A stretch of 64,000 bases of DNA from a virus (taxonomy: Duplodnaviria; Heunggongvirae; Uroviricota; Caudoviricetes): IMG/VR virus record IMGVR_UViG_3300012667_000768. The stretch is one strand, 5' to 3'. Positions 3,242 through 37,687 of the stretch are shown in pieces. Positions within the stretch are counted from its first letter, which is position 1. The number at the start of each line of letters is the position of its first letter. The notes below the pieces were generated by a model. The model made no database searches, had not been told where the DNA came from, and saw nothing but the letters and a program-made list of their open reading frames with translations. The position numbers and the translations under genes are program-made.

Positions 3242-4834
3242 TCAGGCGACGCTATCTGTAATCAGACCATAGTCCGCAGAAGAAGTAACTGGTCCAGTGA
3301 TAAATCCATAGTCCATAAGATCCATGATTCTTTGTTCGAATACTAACCAAGTTGTACCAGTGTAAATAAAGCTAGCATGTGTACGTATCTGGTCTAACAG
3401 AATATCATCTGCCTCATTAAGAATAGTACTACCATTTCTACCTACTGTTACGTGATTAGTATCGAAATAAGCATAAGCATCCATAATAACTACTTCATCA
3501 CCGACGCTAGGATTAGCAGGTAATGCTACAGATACAGGATTAGATCTAGTATCTACGAATACTCCTTCGTTATTACCAGTCGCGGTATAGTTAACACTAG
3601 TGCTCGTCCATACTTTTCCGCCTAGGCTAGTAGGTAAGTTATCTAAATCATTGTAGTCATTGGAAGTAGCTACTGCAGCGAGTCCTGTTACACCTATCTC
3701 TATAGAGGCATCGCCAAGAGTAATACCTATATTGTCTCCTGCGGTTATTTCAGCATTTTCGTATACGTTTAGAGTTTCGTTGCGAATAAGTATAGATCCA
3801 GCAGTATTTGTTCCACTAATCTTTACATCATGTAACTCATTAGTTTCATACCCATTCTGAATTTTTACGTAAATAACACCTACAGTAGCATGACTACGAA
3901 TACATACACCTACATACACAGCGTGATCAGGTGCCTGAGGTATAGTAGTAGTGTAGGCTCCAGGAGTAGTTGGAGATAGCCACAGCGCAGATCCTACTGG
4001 ATATGCTGATGTGTTCAACCCTGTTAAGTACCCAGTAGTGATACAGAATGAACTAGCACCACCAGTTACAGTCTTTGCTATCACACCGAAAGTTTTGGAG
4101 GACTTACTCTCTAAATTAGCTTGAGCAGGACGTACAGTTTGGTTGGCTCCTGTCGAGCCTACTGTGTATACTACTTCACCCTTAGTTAGTCCAGCATTAT
4201 CAGCGTCCCTAACTAGAATAGCGTTAGTCTGTCCTAGTTCAATAGCTAAACCACTATCATCTAATCCTAGGGATAATCCTTGTCGGTCTGCGTTCCAGTA
4301 TAACTTTCCAGTCTCAGGAACTTCAGCTGCTGTAGTATCGAATTGAATAAAGTCAAAGTGTTCGTCTTCAGTCTGATAGTAGCTTCTCCAAGTAGAGCCG
4401 GTGTATACGTATGTAACAGCTATGCCCTTTACATGGAGTACTTCATCTTCTGATACTCCTTCTACAGTTGAACTATTTCTGCTAACTGTTAGAGGATTGT
4501 CGCTAAAGTCATTGCCATCAATAATTACAACTTGAGTACCCTCAGTAGGAGTAGGTGGTAGCGTTATAGTAAAACTACCTCCAGAAGTATCTGCAATGAT
4601 TCCGTCTTTGTCAGAAGCAGTATAACTTCCCGTTTTTACAGTAAAGTCTATACCTCCTGGTTGTTGCATACCTATCTCAACAATACTTTCAGTACCGTCA
4701 TCTTTCTTAAGGTATAACTTGCCGTCATAAGTATTGATAGCAAGTTCGCCAAGTTCTAGTTGGCTAGTCTGCGGAACCTTTGTCGGTTCCGCAGATCTTC
4801 TTAATTTCAGTAAATTAGCCATATGGCTCCCCAT
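3242..4834 (-). CDS. tail fibre / receptor-binding protein
   Basis: 530 aa; N-terminal GELAINTYDGKLYLKKDDG motif typical of phage fibre proteins; position within the fibre cluster. Confidence 0.65.
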   Translation of the reverse strand: MGSHMANLLKLRRSAEPTKVPQTSQLELGELAINTYDGKLYLKKDDGTESIVEIGMQQPGGIDFTVKTGSYTASDKDGIIADTSGGSFTITLPPTPTEGTQVVIIDGNDFSDNPLTVSRNSSTVEGVSEDEVLHVKGIAVTYVYTGSTWRSYYQTEDEHFDFIQFDTTAAEVPETGKLYWNADRQGLSLGLDDSGLAIELGQTNAILVRDADNAGLTKGEVVYTVGSTGANQTVRPAQANLESKSSKTFGVIAKTVTGGASSFCITTGYLTGLNTSAYPVGSALWLSPTTPGAYTTTIPQAPDHAVYVGVCIRSHATVGVIYVKIQNGYETNELHDVKISGTNTAGSILIRNETLNVYENAEITAGDNIGITLGDASIEIGVTGLAAVATSNDYNDLDNLPTSLGGKVWTSTSVNYTATGNNEGVFVDTRSNPVSVALPANPSVGDEVVIMDAYAYFDTNHVTVGRNGSTILNEADDILLDQIRTHASFIYTGTTWLVFEQRIMDLMDYGFITGPVTSSADYGLITDSVA

Positions 4835-9034: not shown

Positions 9035-9625
9035 CTAACGTCCACTAATTCTTCCCTTCTGTGCGGCTACGGCTTCGTCATCCCACCAGTCTGGCTTACC
9101 TCTACGCTTCCACGTAGCAAAAGGGCCTTTATCCAACATATAGAACTTACGATAGGATGCAACTGCATCATCTGACTTTAGTTGGTCAGGCATTGCAAGA
9201 GTTGGTGTAGACCACCCGACATTCGGAAGTCTAGTAGGTTCTGGCATACGATTGGCCTCTGCGCAGGACGCATGAGATTTATTACCACGCCACATCGTCT
9301 CCTCGTTCAAGGCATTGATGTAGTTGATAATCCAGTAGTGATGCTCTAGGCTACTACGTGCCCAAATAGCGCTTGGATGATTAATGTGAGTTGGCAGATA
9401 TCTAGTGAATAGACGTTGGTCAATAGCCGGTTCATTACGCTTATGTTCATTAATAACTCCTAATTCTTCACTTGTTAGTTTACGTGGGATAAAGCCTAGA
9501 TACTTATCTACCCATAGTGTGGTAGTCATAAGCTGTGCTGCCTCTAGTTGCATCTTACCTACGTGTTTGTCGATATGATACTCGGCACATTTATCTAGGT
9601 CATGATCTAGATAGAATAAATTCAT
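9035..9625 (-). CDS. hypothetical protein
   Basis: start re-assigned to MNLFYLDHD (ATG with GAAAGGA Shine-Dalgarno); the track start at 9673 would overlap the promoter -35. Confidence 0.5.
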   Translation of the reverse strand: MNLFYLDHDLDKCAEYHIDKHVGKMQLEAAQLMTTTLWVDKYLGFIPRKLTSEELGVINEHKRNEPAIDQRLFTRYLPTHINHPSAIWARSSLEHHYWIINYINALNEETMWRGNKSHASCAEANRMPEPTRLPNVGWSTPTLAMPDQLKSDDAVASYRKFYMLDKGPFATWKRRGKPDWWDDEAVAAQKGRISGR

Positions 9626-9644
9626 ACTAATCCTTTCTATATTT

Positions 9645-11045: not shown

Positions 11046-11573
11046 CAGATACTTATCCTTATCTGGCGAAGTGAAGTAGGCTGTTTCTTCCTCACGAGTC
11101 AATTTTCTATGTTGGGGAATACTCTTTTTATCCTTCCAACATACATAAGTGGTCCCGTCGAAAGGTATAGTCCAGGGTTCGATACTCATCTTATCTCCTT
11201 ATTGAAATGGCCCGTTCTGTTTCTAGGTGGAACCATACCCAATGTCTTAGTGCTTACGCAGCAAGAGCAAATGCAACGTCGTTATCGTTTGCAGTTATGT
11301 TTTGTGGCACTTTGCCAGTCAATAGTCTCGGCGTTCCTATTACTCGAAAATCGATCCTAGTTCGCCCCCATCATAGATACACTGGTGTGCTACTACGCTA
11401 AAGGATTGACCGTTACCCGATGGGAACTCGAACATTGTCCAACGGCAGTAATCCACTCCTTAGACGATGGCTGCTTCTAGGCCCACGTCCCAATGTATCT
11501 ATGGTGGAGGCGGCGGGTGCTGCCCCCGCGTCTTTCCGCTTTTATTGTCGGCTGTCAGCGACTATAGTCATCA

Positions 11574-11602
11574 GATATAACAAAAGTTACTCTGAAAGTC
11601 AA
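11574..11602 (-). promoter_or_regulatory. promoter TTGACT-N17-TATATC
   Basis: fires into the 480-bp non-coding stretch 11100-11570. Confidence 0.4.
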
Positions 11603-11605
11603 GAA

Positions 11606-12280
11606 TTATTTCTTTATTGCTATGAAATTTGCTTGGTAGTGTCTAGGCGTCATAATATTTAGTCTATTTCTAGCTTCGATTAAGTTTTCACTGAGCAGTA
11701 GATCGTAGTCCTCTGCTAGTAGAAATGACGCGTTCTTGCCCATACTATACGCTTCTATAAGAAGTTTTATATAGCTATACTTTATTCCCTTATGTAAAAG
11801 AGCTATTATTGATATTAATAACCACCCAGGAGCTTTTGTCTGAGTATAAGAGAACATGGCTAAGCACATTTCGCCAATATAAGAGGTATCGTATCCAGTA
11901 AGAGTATGCCATACGTCATGAACATCAGAATATCTTCTAGCAAGCCAGCTATAAGGATGCCTGGCTTCTATCCATTCTTTTTTGCCTTTGCGATTTAATA
12001 CTGGTAAGTAATCTTCTATATTTGGATACTGAAGGTAAGTTTCCTTTCCTACAGAACCCTCTGGCCTAGAAGATAGGTTTCTGAAATAGGTAGATACTTC
12101 TTCCGAATTGTATACTACCTCTCCGCCCTTTTTACTAGATATTAGCTTATTAAGCATACTCTTCAAAGAGTAACGATTAGTGACATATATAAGATATACA
12201 CTAAACTTAGGGTTCTCTGGATTTTTATAAAGCTTTTTACTTATTTTATACGCCGATTTAAGATCTAGTTTTGGCAGCAT
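11606..12280 (-). CDS. hypothetical protein with COQ4-like HDxxH-x11-E metal-binding motif
   Basis: 224 aa; VHDVWHTLTGYDTSYIGE matches the HDxxH-(x)11-E pattern of the COQ4 family. Confidence 0.45.
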   Translation of the reverse strand: MLPKLDLKSAYKISKKLYKNPENPKFSVYLIYVTNRYSLKSMLNKLISSKKGGEVVYNSEEVSTYFRNLSSRPEGSVGKETYLQYPNIEDYLPVLNRKGKKEWIEARHPYSWLARRYSDVHDVWHTLTGYDTSYIGEMCLAMFSYTQTKAPGWLLISIIALLHKGIKYSYIKLLIEAYSMGKNASFLLAEDYDLLLSENLIEARNRLNIMTPRHYQANFIAIKK

Positions 12281-20932: not shown

Positions 20933-21399
20933 TCAAATGCTATTAAAAGACACTAGTAAAGTGATAAAGGTCCAAAAAACCACGATCGCTTCTATAAATT
21001 CGGCCTTGAATGTATACTAATGTCATTTAATAGCACTCCTAAGAATGCTACGAGAAGGATGAGATTACTCCTTCTATCGGAAGTCTTTGGTCATTACCCA
21101 ATCCCTTGCGAGGATGGTTCTACCTTTATCCACCAGAACGTCTCACGACTGTTCTAGTAACTTCCAGTGCTGCTTTATTATAGTGATAGCTTTTTCACTG
21201 TCATACCATGCTACTCACTCATTATTAACCCGTCTACCTTGCGAGCAGTTCAGTTCCGCTAAGAACTTACGTTTTCACTTCGAGCGAACAAATCCAGCTT
21301 GCGACCTTCATTGCACCATCTTCTATTACTAGGATGGTATTAAGCACCTTTCACATGGCACCGAAGCGGACTTTGCGTTTTCTATATATCGTTCCATGA

Positions 21400-21472
21400 T
21401 ATACGTTATAGGATTTGAACCTATGACTCTCTAATTAATGGTTAGATGCTCTACCAACTGAGCTAAACGTAA
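21400..21472 (-). tRNA. tRNA-like gene with non-canonical anticodon loop (CCAUUAA)
   Basis: reverse complement TTACGTTTAGCTCAGTTGGTAGAGCATCTAACCATTAATTAGAGAGTCATAGGTTCAAATCCTATAACGTATA; good D- and T-arms; 1-72 mismatch; position 33 is C. Confidence 0.5.
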
Positions 21473-21933
21473 AGTTGCTAACCTACCTCGAAGTGCCACT
21501 TCCGCTGCTTCATATCCTTTTGAGATACAAAATACAACACTCCGACTGTCTTTCTCCTTGCGAGATACTAAACCATGCTTCTGGACTTTCACCCATTGCA
21601 TTGCCACTTAGCCCTTCCACGCGAATGGTCGAACACAGTGACTACCAGTTAATTGTACGCACCTCATGTTTTGGCTTGTTATGGAACAGGACGCCAATCC
21701 CTTTATCCCTCACCGACCGGCTCTGGGCATATATCCTTTCGGACCATAACAACAATCCATGCGATGATTGCCTAGCTAAATAGACAATGACACGCTTTCG
21801 GCTATAAACCGAGTCGTATCCAACGCTGGCTTGCATAGTAGGACTCTTGCGAGCGGAGGTATGTAGGAATTCCTCCGTTGGCCACATTGCTGTGGTTATC
21901 CTTTATAGAGCGCTATGCCGCTCTTGAATATCT

Positions 21934-29564: not shown

Positions 29565-29593
29565 TTGACAATGAGTTATTTTTATAGTATATA
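29565..29593 (+). promoter_or_regulatory. promoter TTGACA-N17-TATATA, leaderless (ATG 7 nt after -10)
   Basis: divergent from 29504-29532. Confidence 0.55.
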
Positions 29594-29600
29594 TTTACTC

Positions 29601-30065
29601 ATGGCAAACAATCTTATAAACAGCACCAAGTGGACTAAAGATGAGGAAGAGCGCCTCATGAATATCTATAGTCAGTATGACTCCCTCAAGGACGTCCCTT
29701 TTCACCTACTGAACTTTCCAGGACGCACAGAAAAAGCACTCAAAGCTAAACTCAATCGACTTATTACTAGTCACAATCTTACTTATTCTTGGACTAAGGA
29801 AGAGTCTAGAGAAGTCTTTCGCCAGTATCTACAAGGTGTCGCACTCAAAGACATTGAGACTGAAGCTTCCCTCAATGAACTCGAATCTGAACTCAAACGT
29901 CAGCGCGATAAAGCAGAGCAGATTGTTAGAGCTTACGCCGAAGAGCGTGGACTACAAGTCAACAAATATCTCTCACTAGAGACACTCAATCTCTTTCGCA
30001 ATAATTACAATACTACTAGTGACTTCACTAGAAAAGCACTACATAACAGGATTCAAAATGGCTAA
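29601..30065 (+). CDS. Myb/SANT-like DNA-binding protein
   Basis: WTKDEEERL and WTKEESREVF repeats; ATG 7 nt after the -10 box (leaderless); the track start is a TTG inside the -35. Confidence 0.5.
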   Translation: MANNLINSTKWTKDEEERLMNIYSQYDSLKDVPFHLLNFPGRTEKALKAKLNRLITSHNLTYSWTKEESREVFRQYLQGVALKDIETEASLNELESELKRQRDKAEQIVRAYAEERGLQVNKYLSLETLNLFRNNYNTTSDFTRKALHNRIQNG

Positions 30066-30381
30066 ACGCTGGACCAAAGAAGAAGATGCACTACTGCTCA
30101 AACTAAGACAAGAGGGTCTAAGCTCTAAAGAACTAGCATTCCATATCAAACGCTCCGCAGGAGCTATTCGTATGAGACTCTCAGCACTAGGAGCCGATCT
30201 AGTGTCTAAGCCTTGGTCCTCACAAGATAAGGCACTAGCTTGGCAACTTAAAGAAGCTGGACACTCTACTAAATACATTGCTAGAAAACTGCAACGCACA
30301 ACCGCTGCCATTACTTCCTTTCTTTCAAGAGATGAAGCTAATCATTACAGTAATAGCATACCTCTAGAAAATAGTTCTTGA
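30058..30381 (+). CDS. Myb/SANT-like DNA-binding protein
   Basis: WTKEEDALLLKLRQEG and WSSQDKALAWQLKEAG; start overlaps the upstream stop (ATGGCTAA). Confidence 0.5.
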   Translation: MAKRWTKEEDALLLKLRQEGLSSKELAFHIKRSAGAIRMRLSALGADLVSKPWSSQDKALAWQLKEAGHSTKYIARKLQRTTAAITSFLSRDEANHYSNSIPLENSS

Positions 30382-30406
30382 TTTTTTACAAAGCTTATGA
30401 TATAAT
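30378..30406 (+). promoter_or_regulatory. promoter TTGATT-N17-TATAAT into the 700-bp non-coding region
   Basis: follows the stop of 30058-30381. Confidence 0.4.
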
Positions 30407-30544
30407 CTACTATAAGCTAAAGCGAAGTAGGAAGATCGTTAGATATTCCGCAGCGCTGGGGCGTCGGTTCCCAAGACCGATACGACCCATGCGCTGCAAG
30501 AATTTATCTTAAACTAAAGCAAGCTTTAATCCAAATTACAACGT

Positions 30545-30843
30545 AGTTGTCAGATTAAGTAACCCAATGAAACGAAGTTTCAAGTCAGAGGACGAAGTCC
30601 TCTTGTTTGTTACATACTAAGATAACTGCGTGTTGTTGCCGAGAGTCGAATTGTATCTACCTCAAAAGTAAGAAAAATTGTTGGATTGGAACACAATTCA
30701 TCATGGTTTGTTGAGTTCCTGGTCAAACTTTACATAAATCGTACTAGTCGCGCCCCGCTCCTTCTAGCTCGTACCAGAGTTATGCGACGTAGTAATACTA
30801 GGAACGAAGTTCCTTAGCTCTAGTTAGACAACGTAGTTGTCTT
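30545..30843 (+). repeat. four short triloop hairpins, including the direct repeat ACAACGTAGTTGT
   Basis: ACAAC-GTA-GTTGT (30545), AGAGGAC-GAA-GTCCTCT (30590), AGGAAC-GAA-GTTCCT (30803), GACAAC-GTA-GTTGTC (30829). Confidence 0.45.
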
Positions 30844-31035
30844 TATTGCCTGCTGCTTAATTGCAGTGGGCTATTTTTGTGTCTAAATTTCACTTAATTA
30901 TATTAGATTGTTGTGGTGGCGATTGAATTTGCACTAGATGCGGCGAAGACCGCAAAGTTGTGCTCCGGTACCGCCACAAGCCAAAAAAATCGGCGCAATT
31001 TGCCTTTCGGTGCAGCAAAAACAACAAAAAACCCG

Positions 31036-31455: not shown

Positions 31456-31491
31456 TTGACATTGAGTTGAAACTGTACTAAAATCGGCGCC
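31456..31491 (+). promoter_or_regulatory. class A module: TTGACA-N17-TAAAAT followed directly by CGGCGCC
   Basis: transcript would end at terminator 31505-31548 after about 60 nt. Confidence 0.55.
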
Positions 31492-31504
31492 TTTGGCTTG
31501 GGCG

Positions 31505-31548
31505 CAAAAAAGCCCGCTGCAGATGGGCTGCAGCAGGCTATTTTCGTA
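31505..31548. terminator. bidirectional intrinsic terminator
   Basis: GCCCGCTGCAG-atgg-GCTGCAGCAGGC with flanking A6 and T4. Confidence 0.6.
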
Positions 31549-31694
31549 CTAAGCCGATCCGTGTGGAGACTCTGTTACAAGGGACTAAGCGTCCGCGGGT
31601 GAATAACAGGTACTCGGCGGGAGCCGGTCGTGTACTGATTGCTTCCGGAAGGGGGTGTGGAAGTTATCTACTGCCTCGCCCCTTCCTTTATTGC

Positions 31695-32099
31695 TTATGC
31701 ACTCAACTTAGAGCGGATTGCAATAAGCGACTGCTTCGAAGCCTTTTCGAGGCCTTCGAGGTTCTTGCCAACGATCTGGGCAATGTCAGCAACAATTGCT
31801 TCCTTGCTTTCGATCTTGCCACCAGTCTTGGAAACCTTTTCCTTCGACTTGTAGATGCCCATACGGACAGCCTTAGCGCGGATAGAACGCACGTCCTTAC
31901 CGAACTTAGCGGCGAACTCGATAGCAGCGTCATTGTCGATAACGCCTGCAGCAAGCATTTCGGCTTCCTGTGCTTCCGAGTAGTTCTTTGTTACTTCCTT
32001 AGTCATATCAACGTTCCCTTCCGTGTCTTGATGATTAGTTATACCAATGTCAGAGGAAGAAGTCAAGAACAATTTTCTCAATGCTGAAATAATTTTCAT
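31695..32099 (-). CDS. paralogous small-protein family member
   Basis: EFAAKFGKDVRSIRAKAVRMGIY; start MKIISAL with Shine-Dalgarno GGAAGGGAGAAGGAA. Confidence 0.55.
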   Translation of the reverse strand: MKIISALRKLFLTSSSDIGITNHQDTEGNVDMTKEVTKNYSEAQEAEMLAAGVIDNDAAIEFAAKFGKDVRSIRAKAVRMGIYKSKEKVSKTGGKIESKEAIVADIAQIVGKNLEGLEKASKQSLIAIRSKLSA

Positions 32100-32123
32100 T
32101 TCCTTCTCCCTTCCGACCCATTC

Positions 32124-32152
32124 TTTATAGCGGAATGGGCAGGAGAGATCAA
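32124..32152 (-). promoter_or_regulatory. promoter TTGATC-N17-TATAAA
   Basis: proximal promoter for 31695-32099. Confidence 0.4.
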
Positions 32153-32195
32153 GTGCAATTTTTGCATGTGGCCGGAGCAGTTGCAAAAAAAGCAC

Positions 32196-32224
32196 TTGAC
32201 ACGGCGTTGATTTCTCACTATACT
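32196..32224 (+). promoter_or_regulatory. promoter TTGACA-N17-TATACT, followed by TTGGCGCA
   Basis: first of two tandem plus-strand promoters. Confidence 0.5.
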
Positions 32225-32287
32225 TTTGGCGCAACGCGCTTTAACCAAATGGGTTAAAAATTTTTTCAAATTTAACCAAAAAATCGC

Positions 32288-32316
32288 TTGACACGAGGTC
32301 GTTTTCGCACTATAAT
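32288..32316 (+). promoter_or_regulatory. promoter TTGACA-N17-TATAAT, followed by TGGCGCA
   Basis: upstream of the palindromes at 32373-32436. Confidence 0.55.
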
Positions 32317-32372
32317 TGGCGCACGTAAGTTTTGTACTTGTAACTTTTGCACTCTGGCGCGGTAGCGCTGAT

Positions 32373-32436
32373 ATGATATATCATAACGATATGATATATC
32401 ATATCATTGGCTTATGTGATGATATAACATATCATC
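32373..32436. repeat. three perfect palindromes: ATGATATATCAT twice, and GATGATAT-aac-ATATCATC
   Basis: 32373-32384 and 32391-32402 are identical 12-bp self-complementary sites; 32418-32436 is an 8-bp inverted repeat with a 3-nt spacer sharing the ATGATAT half-site. Confidence 0.7.
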
Positions 32437-32526
32437 CAAATCTGCCTCGGCCAGCCCTCCCTCCCACCCTTATAGGGTAGCAATAAAATTTTACCCTGTC
32501 AAGCGCAAATAAAAATAAATTTTCTC

Positions 32527-32562
32527 TTGACAAACGTGTAGAAACCTGCTAAAATCGGCGCC
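32527..32562 (+). promoter_or_regulatory. class A module: TTGACA-N17-TAAAAT-CGGCGCC
   Basis: GGCGCC-N11-GGCGCC lies between this -10 and the -10 of the facing promoter. Confidence 0.55.
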
Positions 32563-32588
32563 TCCCCGATTTCGGCGCCAGCAGCCCT

Positions 32589-32617
32589 ATTATAGCAGGG
32601 TTCGGCTGGCGTGTCAA
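32589..32617 (-). promoter_or_regulatory. facing promoter TTGACA-N17-TATAAT
   Basis: convergent with 32527-32562; the two -10 boxes are about 33 bp apart. Confidence 0.5.
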
Positions 32618-32640
32618 GCGAAAAAATCGCAAAAACAAAA

Positions 32641-32686
32641 AAAAAATCCGCCCAGTTTTACTTGGGCGGACTCTCGTTTTACTTTG
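32641..32686. terminator. bidirectional intrinsic terminator
   Basis: TCCGCCCA-gttttact-TGGGCGGA; T10 on the minus side. Confidence 0.65.
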
Positions 32687-32689
32687 CCT

Positions 32690-33415
32690 TTACTTAACCT
32701 TGAAATGGTCTCGGACAGCAAAAGCGCGGTAATTGTATGGTGGCGGCGACATATATTCTTTTGGTGAAGTATTCTTAACAAGAGCAGTAAGAATAGGAAC
32801 CTCATAAAATTTGGCATCTTCTAAAGCAGTGTGCGGCTCGTCTGCTAGTCCAATGCCTAGCAAGTATTTCGCCATAACGTCCGCATTAGTTTTAATTCCC
32901 ATGTGGCCCGTTTTATTTGTGCGATTTCCGAAAAAGTGATTCTCTAGTGCAAATTGCTTGAAAGCCTTAGTATTTCCCCATTTGGCAACACTAGCGTGCC
33001 ATAGGCAAAAAGAATCGGGAAACAATTCATTTGCGATAATGCCCGAATTGTCCATGACATTTGCGTCAAAAGCCAAGTTATAGGCGGTCAATGTCGGGTT
33101 ATACTTTGCCTTTACTTTAGACAAAAAACGATTGACAGCGCCAACGCTTGCCAGAACGCGCCTGCCATCCTGCAACATTTGTTCATAGGCAGCGTAACGC
33201 TTAGGCAATGAAGCGGCAGAAAAAATGTCGTTTTTATCGCCGTAAACGTGAAACAGCGGATGCGTTTCGCGGTCGCTGAAAAAATCGCCAATAAGGATTC
33301 CAGCCTCGTGGTGGATATTGCCCTTGCGGTCGGACACAACGATTCCAATGTCGGCAACCTTGCCATCTTGTGTTGTTTCAGTGTCAATCGTGACAAAGTA
33401 TTTCTTAGCAGCCAT
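32690..33415 (-). CDS. DEDDh 3'-5' exonuclease (DnaQ-like)
   Basis: Exo I FVTIDTETT, Exo II YNLAFDANV, Exo III HTALEDA; start MAAKKYF with Shine-Dalgarno AAGGAAAAA. Confidence 0.7.
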   Translation of the reverse strand: MAAKKYFVTIDTETTQDGKVADIGIVVSDRKGNIHHEAGILIGDFFSDRETHPLFHVYGDKNDIFSAASLPKRYAAYEQMLQDGRRVLASVGAVNRFLSKVKAKYNPTLTAYNLAFDANVMDNSGIIANELFPDSFCLWHASVAKWGNTKAFKQFALENHFFGNRTNKTGHMGIKTNADVMAKYLLGIGLADEPHTALEDAKFYEVPILTALVKNTSPKEYMSPPPYNYRAFAVRDHFKVK

Positions 33416-33532
33416 TTTCGGTTTTTCCTTTTTCCGTTTCCGATGATTCGTTCTACCAGATTGCACGATTGATGCAAGAAAAATCGACATAAAAAATGCG
33501 AAACCTGTGGATAACTTTTTTCATTTTTCTTC

Positions 33533-33591
33533 ATTTTCCCTATTGACAGCACCCGCCCGCGCATGGTATAATTAGAGTAGCGTTTAAAAAT
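33533..33591 (+). promoter_or_regulatory. class B module: TTGACA-N18-TATAAT, then GTAGCG..AAATTTTCGGCGCC
   Basis: antisense to the minus-strand genes at 33646-34322. Confidence 0.5.
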
Positions 33592-33645
33592 TTTCGGCGC
33601 CTTTGGCGTGTTACCTGAGTAACACACCTCCGGCCTATTCATCCG

Positions 33646-33805
33646 CTAAGGTGATTTCCAGCGGCTCGCCGCTATATAGTTTATTCAATAGCCGCATGAA
33701 TCCAAACAATTCATCGAATTGTGTTTCCGATAAATCGCAATGGCAGACTATTTCGTCTATTTCGCCATAAAGCAAATTTATTGTTTCTTTTGACATTTGC
33801 ATTGC
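33646..33805 (-). CDS. small hypothetical protein (about 53 aa)
   Basis: not in the track; Shine-Dalgarno AAGGGGAAT; follows 33814-34005. Confidence 0.3.
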
Positions 33806-33813
33806 GATTCCCC

Positions 33814-34005
33814 TTAAATGACAGTCATTTCTTGTATAGAAACAAGGTGTTGTTCCTGTAGTGACTCAAAATTTAATTCCTCTTTATCATCTTCGCTTGC
33901 GTCGACGATAAAGTCCAAAGTATTAAACCAGTCTATTGCATTTTGTCGTGAAGTAAAGATAATGTTATCTTGCCCATAATCCCATTCTAGCCAAAGTCTA
34001 AACAT
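33814..34005 (-). CDS. hypothetical protein
   Basis: 63-aa ORF. Confidence 0.45.
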   Translation of the reverse strand: MFRLWLEWDYGQDNIIFTSRQNAIDWFNTLDFIVDASEDDKEELNFESLQEQHLVSIQEMTVI

Positions 34006-34016
34006 AGTAATTCCCC

Positions 34017-34322
34017 TTAGTATTGTGGATAAACAATTAGAGCCAAAAGAATAGTATTTACGAAAAAACCGAATCCGTTGGATACCATATACAAAACATC
34101 TTTATTCTTGTAAGCGCGGACAAAGTAAAGCGCCAAGCCAGCCCAAACTAGCAGAACCATTGAAAGCGGCGGCAGCTTGTCGCTATAACCTAGCAGAACC
34201 GAAATTGTGGTTGGCAATGTTGCGGATTGCACAAGAATCATTCCAGCCCAGCCGGACAATTCAGCCAATGGCATTGCTTTAATTTTCTTAATCATTTTCT
34301 TGTTTCCTTGCTTCGTTTCCAT
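34017..34322 (-). CDS. membrane protein
   Basis: several hydrophobic helices; Shine-Dalgarno AAGGGGAC. Confidence 0.5.
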   Translation of the reverse strand: METKQGNKKMIKKIKAMPLAELSGWAGMILVQSATLPTTISVLLGYSDKLPPLSMVLLVWAGLALYFVRAYKNKDVLYMVSNGFGFFVNTILLALIVYPQY

Positions 34323-34413
34323 GTCCCCTTATCGGCTATTTTTTGCCCTATTGCAAGAAGTTTATTTATGGAAAAAACCGATTAATAAAATTTGTTTAAT
34401 CGAATTTTTTCGC

Positions 34414-34449
34414 TTGACAGGCTAAAATAAATCTGCTAAAATCGGCGCC
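34414..34449 (+). promoter_or_regulatory. class A module: TTGACA-N17-TAAAAT-CGGCGCC
   Basis: GGCGCC-N16-GGCGCC lies between the facing -10 boxes. Confidence 0.55.
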
Positions 34450-34480
34450 TCTGGCCTCAATTTTCGGCGCCCATCGCCCC

Positions 34481-34510
34481 ATTATAACATGGCGGCGTGG
34501 GCCTTGTCAA
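34481..34510 (-). promoter_or_regulatory. facing promoter TTGACA-N18-TATAAT
   Basis: likely promoter of the 34017-34322 operon. Confidence 0.5.
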
Positions 34511-34529
34511 TAGGAAAAATGCACAAAAA

Positions 34530-34572
34530 ACAAAAAAAAAGCGGGGAACAAGTCCCCGCTTCGTTTCTATCT
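34530..34572. terminator. bidirectional intrinsic terminator
   Basis: GCGGGGA-acaag-TCCCCGC; T9 on the minus side. Confidence 0.65.
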
Positions 34573-34580
34573 TAAAGCCT

Positions 34581-34895
34581 TTAGGCTGCGAGCTTTTCCC
34601 GCAGAACCTGCAAAACCAGCTTGGGAGCCTTTTCGAGACCGTCAAGATTCTTGCCAACAATCGAAGCAATATCTTCTACAATCTTTTCCTTAGATTCGAT
34701 TTTACCGCCAGTCTTGCTGACCTTTTCAGCGGCTTTGTAAATGCCAAGGCGAACCGCCTTAGCGCGAATCGAGCGGACATCTTTACCGAATTTCGCAGCA
34801 AAGTCGAGAGCCTTAGCATTGTCAATAATGCCAGCGGCAAGCAATTCAGCTTCTTGCGATTCAGTGTAGTTTTTAGGTGTTTCAGTCTTAGCCAT
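34581..34895 (-). CDS. paralogous small-protein family member
   Basis: about 75% identical to the 31695-32099 product (DFAAKFGKDVRSIRAKAVRLGIY). Confidence 0.55.
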   Translation of the reverse strand: MAKTETPKNYTESQEAELLAAGIIDNAKALDFAAKFGKDVRSIRAKAVRLGIYKAAEKVSKTGGKIESKEKIVEDIASIVGKNLDGLEKAPKLVLQVLREKLAA

Positions 34896-35038
34896 GATAG
34901 TATTTCCTTTGTTATCGCGAGAGGCCCATCCCCTCTTGATGTCCCCTTATACCGCCGCTTTAGTAATCGTGCAAGAAAAAAATTCACGAAAAGCGAAAAA
35001 TGCGACGAACCGTTCATCGCATTTTTTCATTTAAGGGA

Positions 35039-35096
35039 TTGACAGGCCCCAGCCGCACGTGCTATAATGGTAGTAGCGACCCAAATTTTCGGCGCC
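35039..35096 (+). promoter_or_regulatory. class B module: TTGACA-N18-TATAAT, then GTAGCG..AAATTTTCGGCGCC
   Basis: transcript would end at terminator 35145-35175. Confidence 0.5.
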
Positions 35097-35114
35097 TTTT
35101 GGGCGCATCAGTCC

Positions 35115-35143
35115 ATTTTAACATATCCTGAATTTTGTGTCAA
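35115..35143 (-). promoter_or_regulatory. facing promoter TTGACA-N17-TAAAAT
   Basis: convergent with 35039-35096; leads toward 34581-34895. Confidence 0.5.
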
Positions 35144-35144
35144 A

Positions 35145-35175
35145 TAAAAAAAGAGGCTTTCGCCTCTTTTCTTTA
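35145..35175. terminator. bidirectional intrinsic terminator
   Basis: AGAGGC-tttc-GCCTCT with A7 before and T-run after. Confidence 0.6.
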
Positions 35176-35646
35176 GGCCGCAAGCCTTTCGTTTATCTTG
35201 GTTGCGTCATAGCATTTTATGCCGATTGAAACCATTGCATCAATAACCTTTAGGTTATCGTCAAACATGATTGCCTTAGCATCGGCAGCGCAATTGAAAC
35301 CTTCACCAATGAAATAGGTTTCAAGCAAACGAATCTTAAGGCTTGCATCGGATTCCATATTGCCCATTTCACGATGCAGCAAAGCGTCATAGGGAAGGCG
35401 ATTAACAGCAAGAAAAATCTTATCGGCTGGCTGGACTGCCCGCGCTGTGCAAACAATAACCTTATGCCCGATTGAAACCATAGCGCGCATTGACTCGGCT
35501 AAAGGCAAAAGCGAATCGGACATAATCTTTTCTGCGGTATTGTTAGCGAACCAATGGTCAAGGTCAAGCGAGCCATCGGCTTTAGTCGCTTGGCGATGCG
35601 TCGAATCAATCACAGTGCCATCTAGGTCAAAAATAATGTAAGCCAT
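35173..35646 (-). CDS. HAD-superfamily hydrolase/phosphatase
   Basis: motif I FDLDGTVIDS, motif II VCTAR, motif IV MFDDN. Confidence 0.7.
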   Translation of the reverse strand: MAYIIFDLDGTVIDSTHRQATKADGSLDLDHWFANNTAEKIMSDSLLPLAESMRAMVSIGHKVIVCTARAVQPADKIFLAVNRLPYDALLHREMGNMESDASLKIRLLETYFIGEGFNCAADAKAIMFDDNLKVIDAMVSIGIKCYDATKINERLAA

Positions 35647-35738
35647 TTGTTATTCCCTTTCGTCTTGATAAACAATCCTTAGCCGATATTGCGCCCTAGT
35701 GTCAACGAAAAAAATCGCAAAAATAAAAAATAAATGCT

Positions 35739-35796
35739 ATTGACAGGCCCTAGTCATACGTGATATATTTAAGGTAGCGTGCAAAATTTTTGGCGC
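35739..35796 (+). promoter_or_regulatory. class B module: TTGACA-N18-TATATT, then GTAGCG..AAATTTTTGGCGCC
   Basis: antisense to 35809-36009. Confidence 0.5.
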
Positions 35797-35808
35797 CAAT
35801 TGGCGGCC

Positions 35809-37420: not shown

Positions 37421-37687
37421 TTAGCTTCGTGAAGTTTTTGCATATTGTTGTCCTAGCTTGAAGAGACCGATTGCTGGAAGGCTAATTGGCCAGAGAAGTG
37501 CAAAGGGTATTGAAAGTACTATGAACTTAAAAATCTTGTCACCGTCTAGCTCCAGATCTTCCTTTTTCTTCTTACGATATGTAATATCGTATTCGCTTGG
37601 TGGGCTATAAAATAGTTCCCGTTGCTTTGCGCCAGCGTAGGTTACTCTCGCCGCTAGTATTACTAGAAGTCCAGTTGTATAAATCAT
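37421..37687 (-). CDS. membrane protein
   Basis: 88 aa, two TM helices. Confidence 0.45.
   Translation of the reverse strand: MIYTTGLLVILAARVTYAGAKQRELFYSPPSEYDITYRKKKKEDLELDGDKIFKFIVLSIPFALLWPISLPAIGLFKLGQQYAKTSRS

Follow-up and report, generated by a model that had tools for sequence, protein, structure and literature searches.

What recognises three AT-rich palindromes in a gene-free gap of a viral genome, and to what effect, is the question raised by the 64,000-nt stretch analysed here, which comes from the IMG/VR record IMGVR_UViG_3300012667_000768 and is referred to below as the window (motif, promoter and gene counts given for the window cover that length). The window belongs to a novel uncultivated T5-like siphovirus, and the gap, ~680 bp without a credible open reading frame (ORF) at 32010-32689, carries two tandem promoters, P1 and P2, upstream of the palindromes. 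The original prediction, made from the letters of the DNA, had proposed either a transcription-activated origin or a multi-site operator for a dimeric repressor, in a gap that it put at 480 bp, short of the length measured here. The operator half of this proposal has gained ground, since the palindromes match the boxes of Zur, a dimeric repressor of the Fur family that binds DNA when it is loaded with Zn2+, whereas nothing beyond the layout speaks for an origin. The three palindromes are probably functional Zur-binding sites, and a tandem operator array for the host's Zur, acting in cis between convergent promoters, seems a likely enough account of them.

Identity of the three palindromes

Two copies of ATGATATATCAT had been reported 7 bp apart. 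Both are in place (32373-32384 and 32391-32402), with a spacing of 6 nt and an 18-bp period, and the third palindrome, GATGATAT-aac-ATATCATC, is found as claimed at 32418-32436, all of them sharing ATGATAT. The three sites are best written as 17-bp boxes of the form ATGATAT-N3-ATATCAT, located at 32368-32384, 32391-32407 and 32419-32435, with centres 23 and 28 bp apart. With at most one mismatch, the 12-mer ATGATATATCAT has three matches in the 64 kb, all at the array, when 0.33 would be expected; the 17-mer, with at most two mismatches, has five matches, all in the array, against 0.03 in shuffled sequences.

Box 3 together with its flanks (32415-32434) is the sole match in the 64 kb to the 20-nt Zur motif TRWNAYRWTATAWYRTNWCA of Escherichia coli, quoted in PMC6103462, and fits it at 20/20 positions on both strands. 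About 0.001 such matches are expected in the window, an estimate that assumes uniform base composition. The 17-bp palindromic consensus of Pseudomonas aeruginosa Zur, GWWAYWNNNTWHCR (PMC10393844), has 10 matches in the window, 5 of them inside the 65 bp of 32369-32434. Box 1 is matched at 32369 (-) and 32375 (+), and box 2 at 32387 (-) and 32393 (+). A lone match of the same type, GATATTACATATCG at 37575-37588 (-), falls within a small minus-strand ORF and is probably due to chance. Box 3 is also identical at 13/15 positions to GTAACGATATAACAT, the zur-promoter motif of Paracoccus denitrificans, whose Zur protein shifted zur/znuA promoter DNA in a zinc-dependent manner (PMC5387054).

The company that the box keeps in bacteria points in the same direction. 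A scan of GTDB, with a single genome for each species, gave more than 120 sites of the exact 17-mer ATGATATAWCATATCAT (a lower bound), many of them in high-GC Proteobacteria; the genomes, among the matches listed, include those of Burkholderia, Halomonas, Croceicoccus, Stellaceae, Nitrosomonas, Vibrio and Marinomonas. Among the same listed matches, 89 of 122 sites lie outside any ORF of at least 150 amino acids (aa), and the 128 flanking ORFs, defined as those that start at most 300 bp away and point away from the site, comprise 18 TonB-dependent receptors, 11 CobW/COG0523 GTPases, 8 FUR-family regulators, 6 ABC ATPases, 4 ZrgA and 3 ZnuA proteins, plus FolE2, DUF1826 and amidohydrolases. The NCBIfam names given to these neighbours, also for the matches listed, include ZigA (2e-177), ZnuD-like receptors and a PyrC2-type dihydroorotase. 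The exact 17-mer of box 3 adjoins ZnuD-like receptors, ZigA, zur and ZnuA in bacterial genomes (among the matches listed), and that of box 2, the variant with an ATC centre, adjoins cobW/COG0523 (3 cases), FolE2 and a PyrC2-like amidohydrolase. This set of neighbours is the textbook Zur regulon (PMC6103462). The finding predicts a proteobacterial host.

The boxes recur in relatives of the phage, for which the syntenic gap was taken from 11 related metagenomic contigs; all counts of relatives refer to those. The original prediction was to fall if the palindromes were absent from related genomes; on checking, they are present in most, in variable number. Matches to GWWAYWNNNTWHCR stand at the syntenic position in 7 of the 11 gaps (1-5 matches, equal to 1-4 boxes), with an array spacing of 22-23 bp, and their density is 1.27/kb within the gaps and 0.17/kb outside, a sevenfold difference. 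Across the relatives the half-site sequence of the ATGATAT boxes is kept and decayed right arms are not compensated, which fits a protein-binding DNA site and not an RNA stem. Other IMG/VR contigs that contain the exact 17-mer have no arrays, which makes the tandem arrangement a peculiarity of this lineage. Immediately upstream of the slot of the Zur-like boxes, four relatives (L001, L142, L147 and L003) have Fur-box-like 19-mers, GCTAATGAGAATCATTYGC and GCTATTGCGAATCATTATC (15/19), with 4 matches against 0.3 expected; a single phage protein would hardly account for look-alikes of two different host Fur-family operators occurring together. By tblastn, no Fur-family protein is encoded in the window.

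In three relatives (L145, L148 and L007) the box slot is taken by TAAGTCWTTGATTT, repeated 3-4 times; its opposite strand fits the core consensus of IHF. The whole window has 0 matches to the IHF consensus, when 4.6 are expected, and the IHF-like sites of these relatives are therefore not part of the gap in the window.

A proposed host-Zur operator array and its rivals

The array lies between P2, with its start near 32323, and the opposing promoter P- 32617, with its start near 32582. We infer that Zur binds the boxes, and the proposed mechanism is the following. In a zinc-replete host, Zur dimers would occupy the three 17-bp boxes, and transcription from the convergent promoters would meet a protein block between them. 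Weak promoter-like elements within the boxes, which match the consensus at 9/12 positions (TTGGCT-17-TATCAT at 32407-32435 on the plus strand and ATCACA-18-TATCAT at 32420..32391 on the minus strand), would be covered, and the block would obstruct RNA polymerase travelling rightward from P2 as well as leftward from P- 32617 toward the neighbouring 104-aa gene, termed A2-like for a weak match to T5 A2. When zinc is scarce, apo-Zur would leave the DNA and the block would be lifted. A literature search found no report of Zur as a regulator borrowed by a phage, and near-perfect Zur boxes set in tandem within the non-coding early control region of an uncultivated, widespread lineage of T5-like phages are apparently undescribed. 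If Zur does bind, the lineage reads or manipulates the zinc status of its host, which would be relevant to phage-host dynamics in metal-limited waters and soils.

Several points weigh against this account. Canonical Zur repression works by occlusion of a -35 or -10 element, and the boxes overlap no strong promoter, the consensus promoters lying 50-150 bp away and P1 and P2 50-170 bp upstream; as the boxes cover no consensus promoter, the classical promoter-occlusion mechanism is not demonstrated here. Boxes 1 and 2 are made of GATAT/ATATC pentamers, so that slippage could explain part of their symmetry. The number of boxes in relatives ranges from 0 to 4, with none in L142 and L143; in L143 an unrelated 16-mer, AAGCTAATATAAGTGA, occurs four times in the box slot. 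The account also presupposes a host that has a Zur of this specificity. A phage-encoded binder could lie outside the 64 kb examined. Finally, an early destruction of host DNA like that of T5 would make a purely host-directed role pointless.

That the same sites act as a decoy is an idea which we hold to be unlikely. Replicating genomes, in hundreds of copies with three boxes each, would titrate low-abundance Zur, and the host genes for zinc import and zinc sparing would be derepressed, from which zinc-dependent proteins of the phage would profit. Whatever identifies the sites as Zur boxes counts equally for a decoy, the position off the strong promoters and the variable number are as expected of a dosage device, and the phage has probable zinc enzymes, namely a Peptidase_M15 endolysin and an M23 domain in its tape-measure protein. 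Multicopy Fur boxes derepress Fur regulons, which is the principle of the Fur titration assay. However, relatives with 0-1 box exist, host derepression becomes moot if, as expected of a T5-like phage, host DNA is shut off or broken down early, and the conserved, exactly placed slot between promoters suggests a role in cis.

It is no likelier that the array is the operator or iteron array of a dimeric DNA-binding protein encoded by the phage, with a resemblance to Zur boxes that would be coincidental or a case of mimicry. Candidate binders would include the adjacent A2-like protein and the Myb/HTH (helix-turn-helix) proteins at 29565-30381. The A2-like neighbour, weakly related to T5 A2 (phrog_1725, 18/19), has a structural model with HTH-like domains, three 17-bp quasi-palindromes at 23-28 bp resemble lambda OR/OL, and the site is unique in the 64 kb. 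Nevertheless, two of the boxes are identical at 17/17 positions to functional bacterial Zur boxes, and box 3 at 20/20 to the E. coli motif; L142 and L143 encode A2-like proteins that are 83-87% identical and have no such boxes; Fur-like boxes co-occur in relatives; and no repressor-type gene is paired with the boxes. A tripartite operator of the lambda type was considered and rejected: the boxes overlap no consensus promoter, and no cI/cro-like pair was found in the window.

A third possibility, which appears improbable, is a cis signal for DNA entry or DNA ends comparable to the injection stop of T5, in which the palindromes, whether or not host proteins are bound to them, would stage transfer or mark the boundary of a terminal repeat instead of controlling transcription. 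The T5 left terminal repeat contains three conserved untranslated repeat regions (RR1-RR3), tandem pre-early promoters, inverted repeats and palindromes, and RR3 is the candidate injection stop signal. The window has a T5 pre-early-like block, in which the dmp homologue and the A2-like genes lie together with strong host promoters, placed between the early and late arms, the position of the terminal repeat in T5; the untranslated palindromic repeat regions of T5 are conserved and carry an HNH insertion in some phages, and three relatives have a homing-endonuclease-like gene in the gap. Furthermore, L142 shares with T5 a motif matching at 17/18 nt, GATTGATTCT(T/C)ATTATCA. The injection-stop repeats of T5 are themselves Fur-box-like: the first 11 kb of T5 (AY587007) have 5 matches to the Fur-box 19-mer GATAATGATAATCATTATC with at most 4 mismatches, when 0.02 are expected, two of which lie in the DRC/palG/palI repeats (9574 and 9615, in the region 9460-9640) and bracket the calculated shear point, or transfer stop, at 9618. 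Fur-box look-alikes stand also at 228-252 and 4174-4192, and TTAAATGAGAATCATTATCATTTGC of T5 is identical at 22/25 positions to published Fur boxes of A. baumannii and includes the core of the iron box listed as GATAATGAGAATCATTATT; the Davison preprint on T5 does not mention Fur. Against an entry signal, no terminal repeat or physical end is visible in the window, the paired DnaA boxes of Davison's injection-stop model (IRD'-spacer-IRC') are absent from the gap, what the T5 region does is itself unproven, and DNA still outside the cell is beyond the reach of a cytoplasmic regulator. Since it is without paired DnaA boxes, the gap is not classed as a member of the T5 injection-stop group.

The origin envisaged in the original prediction, where transcripts from P1 and P2 would open or prime the AT-rich palindromes as at the primary origin of T7, now looks very improbable. 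Tandem strong promoters do stand 50-120 bp upstream of an AT-rich, repeat-bearing, gene-free stretch, which at the 60-bp scale is within the least stable 0.2% of the window. The easily melted tract, however, measures only ~65 bp, its stability rank falling from 139 of 63,940 at 60 bp to 1,136 at 80 bp and 8,388 at 100 bp; the gap has no DnaA boxes (TTWTNCACA is absent) and no replication genes near it; and the boxes are set between convergent promoters, which generate positive supercoiling, and not between divergent ones. In most relatives a covarying hairpin, in some of them T-rich on its 3' side, intervenes between P2 and the boxes, and a Zur box accounts fully for the motif. The minimum of the cumulative GC skew lies elsewhere, at ~38 kb, where it coincides with the strand switch of the genes and is thus uninformative. 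The only two perfect DnaA boxes of the window (TTATCCACA) are at 33506-33514 (-) and 34024-34032 (-), both in the pre-early-like block; the first is intergenic and just upstream of the plus-strand promoter at 33543.

Least credible of all is an RNA element in which the palindromes are hairpins of a non-coding RNA or leader from P2 or P- 32617: the predicted fold (-44.4 kcal/mol, z = -5.2, with a perfect 17-bp hairpin), the abundance of non-coding RNA in this phage (GOLLD, transfer-messenger RNA (tmRNA)) and the covarying hairpin of the adjacent P2 leader would suit it, but any palindrome yields a strong z-score, the half-sites are kept with broken right arms uncompensated, the sequence is explained as a DNA operator, and Rfam has no family on the gap at gathering or E-value threshold, the palindromes attracting only miRNA-like chance matches.

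The gap and the pre-early-like block

The gap is bordered by two minus-strand genes, the A2-like gene and a DnaQ-like exonuclease gene with its stop at 32690; both flanking genes being on the minus strand, P1 and P2 are without a downstream plus-strand gene. The features of the region are collected in the table.

Table. Features of the gap and of the neighbouring genes, with positions in the window.
Feature	Position	Strand	Sequence or match	Basis or remark
Promoter P1	32196-32224	+	TTGACA-17-TATACT	11/12 in promoter scan
Start of P1 transcript	32228-32267	+	GGCGC-aac-GCGCT hairpin, TTTAACC-aaatg-GGTTAAA hairpin, then AATTTTTTC	read from sequence
Promoter P2	32288-32316	+	TTGACA-17-TATAAT	12/12 in promoter scan
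Conserved P2 leader	32323-32369	+	ACGTAAG, TTTTGTACT, TTTTGCACT, then GGCGC-ggta-GCGCT hairpin	
Zur-like box 1	32368-32384 (alternative register 32373-32389)		CTGATAT-gat-ATATCAT	2-3 mismatches to 17-mer
Zur-like box 2	32391-32407		ATGATAT-atc-ATATCAT	7/7 symmetric arms
Zur-like box 3	32415-32435		tgtgATGATAT-aac-ATATCAT	
G-quadruplex motif	32462-32476	-	GGGTGGGAGGGAGGG	read from sequence
Promoter P3, face to face with P-	32527-32555	+		11/12 in promoter scan
Promoter P-, face to face with P3	32617..32589	-		12/12 in promoter scan
Intrinsic terminator of upstream exonuclease operon	32642-32675	-		terminator scan; stem possible on both strands
Promoter-like element of A2-like gene	32152..32124	-	TTGATC-17-TATAAA	by eye
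Promoter-like element of A2-like gene	32066..32038	-	TTGACT-17-TATAAC	by eye
104-aa A2-like gene	31695-32009	-		paralogue at 34581-34895
dmp homologue (T5 pre-early 5'-deoxyribonucleotidase)	35173-35646	-	T5 dmp, 1e-17; phrog_415, 2e-26	first value by BLASTP; context marker

The tandem plus-strand promoters that had been claimed at 32196 and 32288 hold as consensus sigma-70 promoters (11/12 and 12/12) and are parts of a 40-nt direct repeat, 80% identical; what the original prediction overlooked is the density of promoters on both strands of the gap. Both hexamers of P1 are kept in L001 and L007, and the promoter is found in most relatives; P2 is kept in L001, L003, L137, L143, L145 and L147. 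The start of the P1 transcript, with its two hairpins, is probably a short RNA or an attenuator. The second of these hairpins is the palindrome that had been described as GGTTAAA..TTTAACC; it exists, at 32240-32258, in the opposite order (TTTAACC-aaatg-GGTTAAA), with a T-run after it and an extra TTTAACC at 32271, and TTAACC-N5-GGTTAA is found in 8/11 of the related gaps.

In the alignment with relatives the P2 leader is the best-conserved block of the gap apart from the promoters. Its hairpin has 8-10 bp in the relatives and at least 5 different stems, all fully compensated (GCAATAGC/GCTATTGC, GCATACGC/GCGTATGC, GCGGGAAC/GTTCCCGC, CGCGGGAA/TTCCCGCG and GGCGCAGCAG/CTGCTGCGCC), and it is therefore a selected structure. 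The window retains just the 5-bp core of it, the GGCGCGGTAGCGC at 32356-32368 that had already been listed in the original prediction. The element is reminiscent of nut/put-like leader elements. It is found duplicated (TTTTGCACT twice, then a GGCGC-loop-GCGC hairpin) 3' of a promoter in two otherwise unrelated IMG/VR contigs, L012 (2440-2540) and L014 (7200-7300), which have a perfect DnaA box near it. A scan of metagenome contigs with GCACTCTGGCGCN{2,5}GCGC returned only chance matches in GC-rich bacteria.

The order of elements in the gap is kept in relatives: P1, the GGCGC hairpin, the TTTAACC-N5-GGTTAAA hairpin, P2, the leader ACGTAAC..TTTTGCACT..TTTTGCACT and its hairpin, followed by variable short-repeat modules with the 0-4 ATGATAT boxes, mostly a CATTTAACATAAT / CCTAAGTGATTGATT module, and finally the face-to-face promoters. 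The module with the G-quadruplex, which sits just downstream of a minus-strand TTGACA-17-TACCCT element (32502..32474), is common to the window and L142, and most relatives have the CATTTAACATAAT / CCTAAGTGATTGATT module instead. Three relatives have a gene inserted in the gap (L003 6630-7180, L142 1966-2724 and L145 2161-2757, in locus coordinates), with N-terminal HTH repeats and a T5orf172/GIY-YIG-like C-terminus, which makes it homing-endonuclease-like. On the minus strand, CTTTATAGCGGAA, in the promoter-like region of the A2-like gene (32038-32152), is invariant in alignment A1, and L001 reads TTGACT..TATAAT at the second site. A coding reading of the 54-aa plus-strand ORF at 32316-32480 was rejected, the ORF being without a ribosome-binding site and broken by indels in L001.

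P3 and P-, kept in all relatives, have start sites ~20 bp apart with GGCGCC at 32557 and 32574 between them (inverted repeat I1), and paralogous face-to-face modules are found at 34414/34510 and 35039/35143. All three pairs have a GGCGCC...GGCGCC hairpin and start sites 20-40 bp apart. The GGCGCC hexamers of the window, 8/8, lie at 31486-35797, each right after a consensus promoter. The plus-strand promoters at 31456, 33543, 35039 and 35740 oppose minus-strand genes.

The T5-like character of the genome is apparent at a larger scale. Genes run leftward from ~38 kb and rightward after it, and the rightward arm is a T5-type structural module with terminase, portal, prohead protease, Phage_tube_2, Baseplate_Tube_p140 and the tape-measure protein with its M23 domain. 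The strong promoter matches number 19 in the window, 11 of them at 31.4-35.2 kb. We infer that 29-38 kb is the counterpart of the pre-early (first-step-transfer) block of T5, between the early and late arms; solid homology to T5 pre-early genes in this interval is limited to dmp, on whose orthologue in L141 PF26880 is recorded, and no homologue of T5 A1 was found.

The 104-aa A2-like protein has ~490 metagenomic homologues. Of its family, 18/19 members match phrog_1725 weakly (best E 2.8e-4), the profile that T5 A2 itself matches at 4e-52; BLASTP against T5 A2 gave E = 0.016, hhalign a probability of 2%, and a PDB sequence search nothing, so that the link to T5 A2 rests only on the weak phrog_1725 matches. 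Its AlphaFold2 (AF2) model (pLDDT 84) has small helical HTH-like domains, and a Foldseek search of the model against PDB gave no match with E < 0.1; the protein itself probably binds DNA.

Compared with INPHARED phages by megablast and blastn, the gap has nothing similar, and the exonuclease, by tblastn, has distant Enterococcus phage matches only. The RNAs of the window are a GOLLD RNA, a permuted tmRNA and four tRNAs. The GOLLD RNA (21056-21545 (-), 201.7 bits), here carried by a T5-like phage, has a tRNA embedded at 21398-21473, and the tmRNA, of the permuted alpha type, is at 11206-11606 (-). At 30378-30880 (+), a TTGATT-17-TATAAT promoter is followed by ~470 nt without a credible ORF and by a plus-strand terminator (30848-30871); this stretch looks like an unannotated gene for a large structured non-coding RNA and is without an Rfam match. 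At 31540-31694, a GC-rich non-coding stretch of ~155 nt between the stop of the 104-aa gene and a terminator (31539..31511) may be a structured 3' untranslated region or a small RNA.

Comparison with known systems

By analogy of place and architecture, the gap is the counterpart of the untranslated repeat regions in the left terminal repeat of T5. Like RR1-RR3, it is non-coding DNA rich in repeats and palindromes among pre-early genes with strong host promoters, and relatives conserve such DNA; both bear arrays of host-factor-like sites, the DRC/palG/palI repeats of T5 being Fur-box-like; and the homing-endonuclease-like gene in the gaps of relatives has its parallel in T5, where an HNH gene is inserted between RR1 and RR2. 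In contrast to T5, the gap shows no overall sequence homology to the T5 regions and no paired DnaA boxes, and it is full of strong promoters, which RR3 is without. The series of look-alikes, of Zur boxes here and of Fur boxes in some relatives and in T5, suggests a wider theme, interesting and unproven. That arrays resembling Fur-family operators are a general functional feature of T5-like untranslated pre-early DNA, with the metal-loaded host regulator binding the incoming DNA and thereby staging entry or the pre-early programme, is a doubtful proposition. If true, infection would be tied to the metal status by which the TonB-dependent receptors used by these phages are controlled as well. 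The Fur look-alikes of T5 bear on the old question of what halts its DNA after 8% has entered.

With regard to the primary origin of T7 (phi1.1A/1.1B), the likeness ends at tandem promoters upstream of an AT-rich non-coding stretch, whereas the promoters here are of the host sigma-70 type, the AT-rich part is short and made of operator palindromes, a promoter opposes them and a replication context is lacking. Lambda OR/OL likewise have three 17-bp quasi-palindromes, with a spacing of roughly 23-24 bp, and a dimeric repressor; unlike them, the array is without an adjacent repressor gene pair or overlap with divergent promoters, and its sequence is that of a host regulator.

The Zur boxes of Proteobacteria are the closest match in sequence, with 20/20 identity to the motif of E. 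coli, the Pseudomonas consensus in boxes 1-3 and 13/15 identity to Paracoccus, and adjacent multiple boxes are natural there too, as in the zur/znuA region of P. denitrificans, which has two. What differs is the setting, since the array is found in a virulent-type phage and not at a bacterial zinc-uptake promoter, as three tandem boxes that stand off the strong -35/-10 elements inside a convergently transcribed non-coding spacer. Host-factor sites are found in other phages, such as Pho boxes and NtcA sites in cyanophages, CtrA sites in alphaproteobacterial phages, the Fur box at stx1 and the LexA boxes of prophages. Those sites for PhoB, NtcA, CtrA, Fur and LexA usually overlap the promoter of one phage gene, whereas the tandem array described here lies apart from strong promoters; the likeness is that in each case the phage carries the operator and borrows the sensor of its host.

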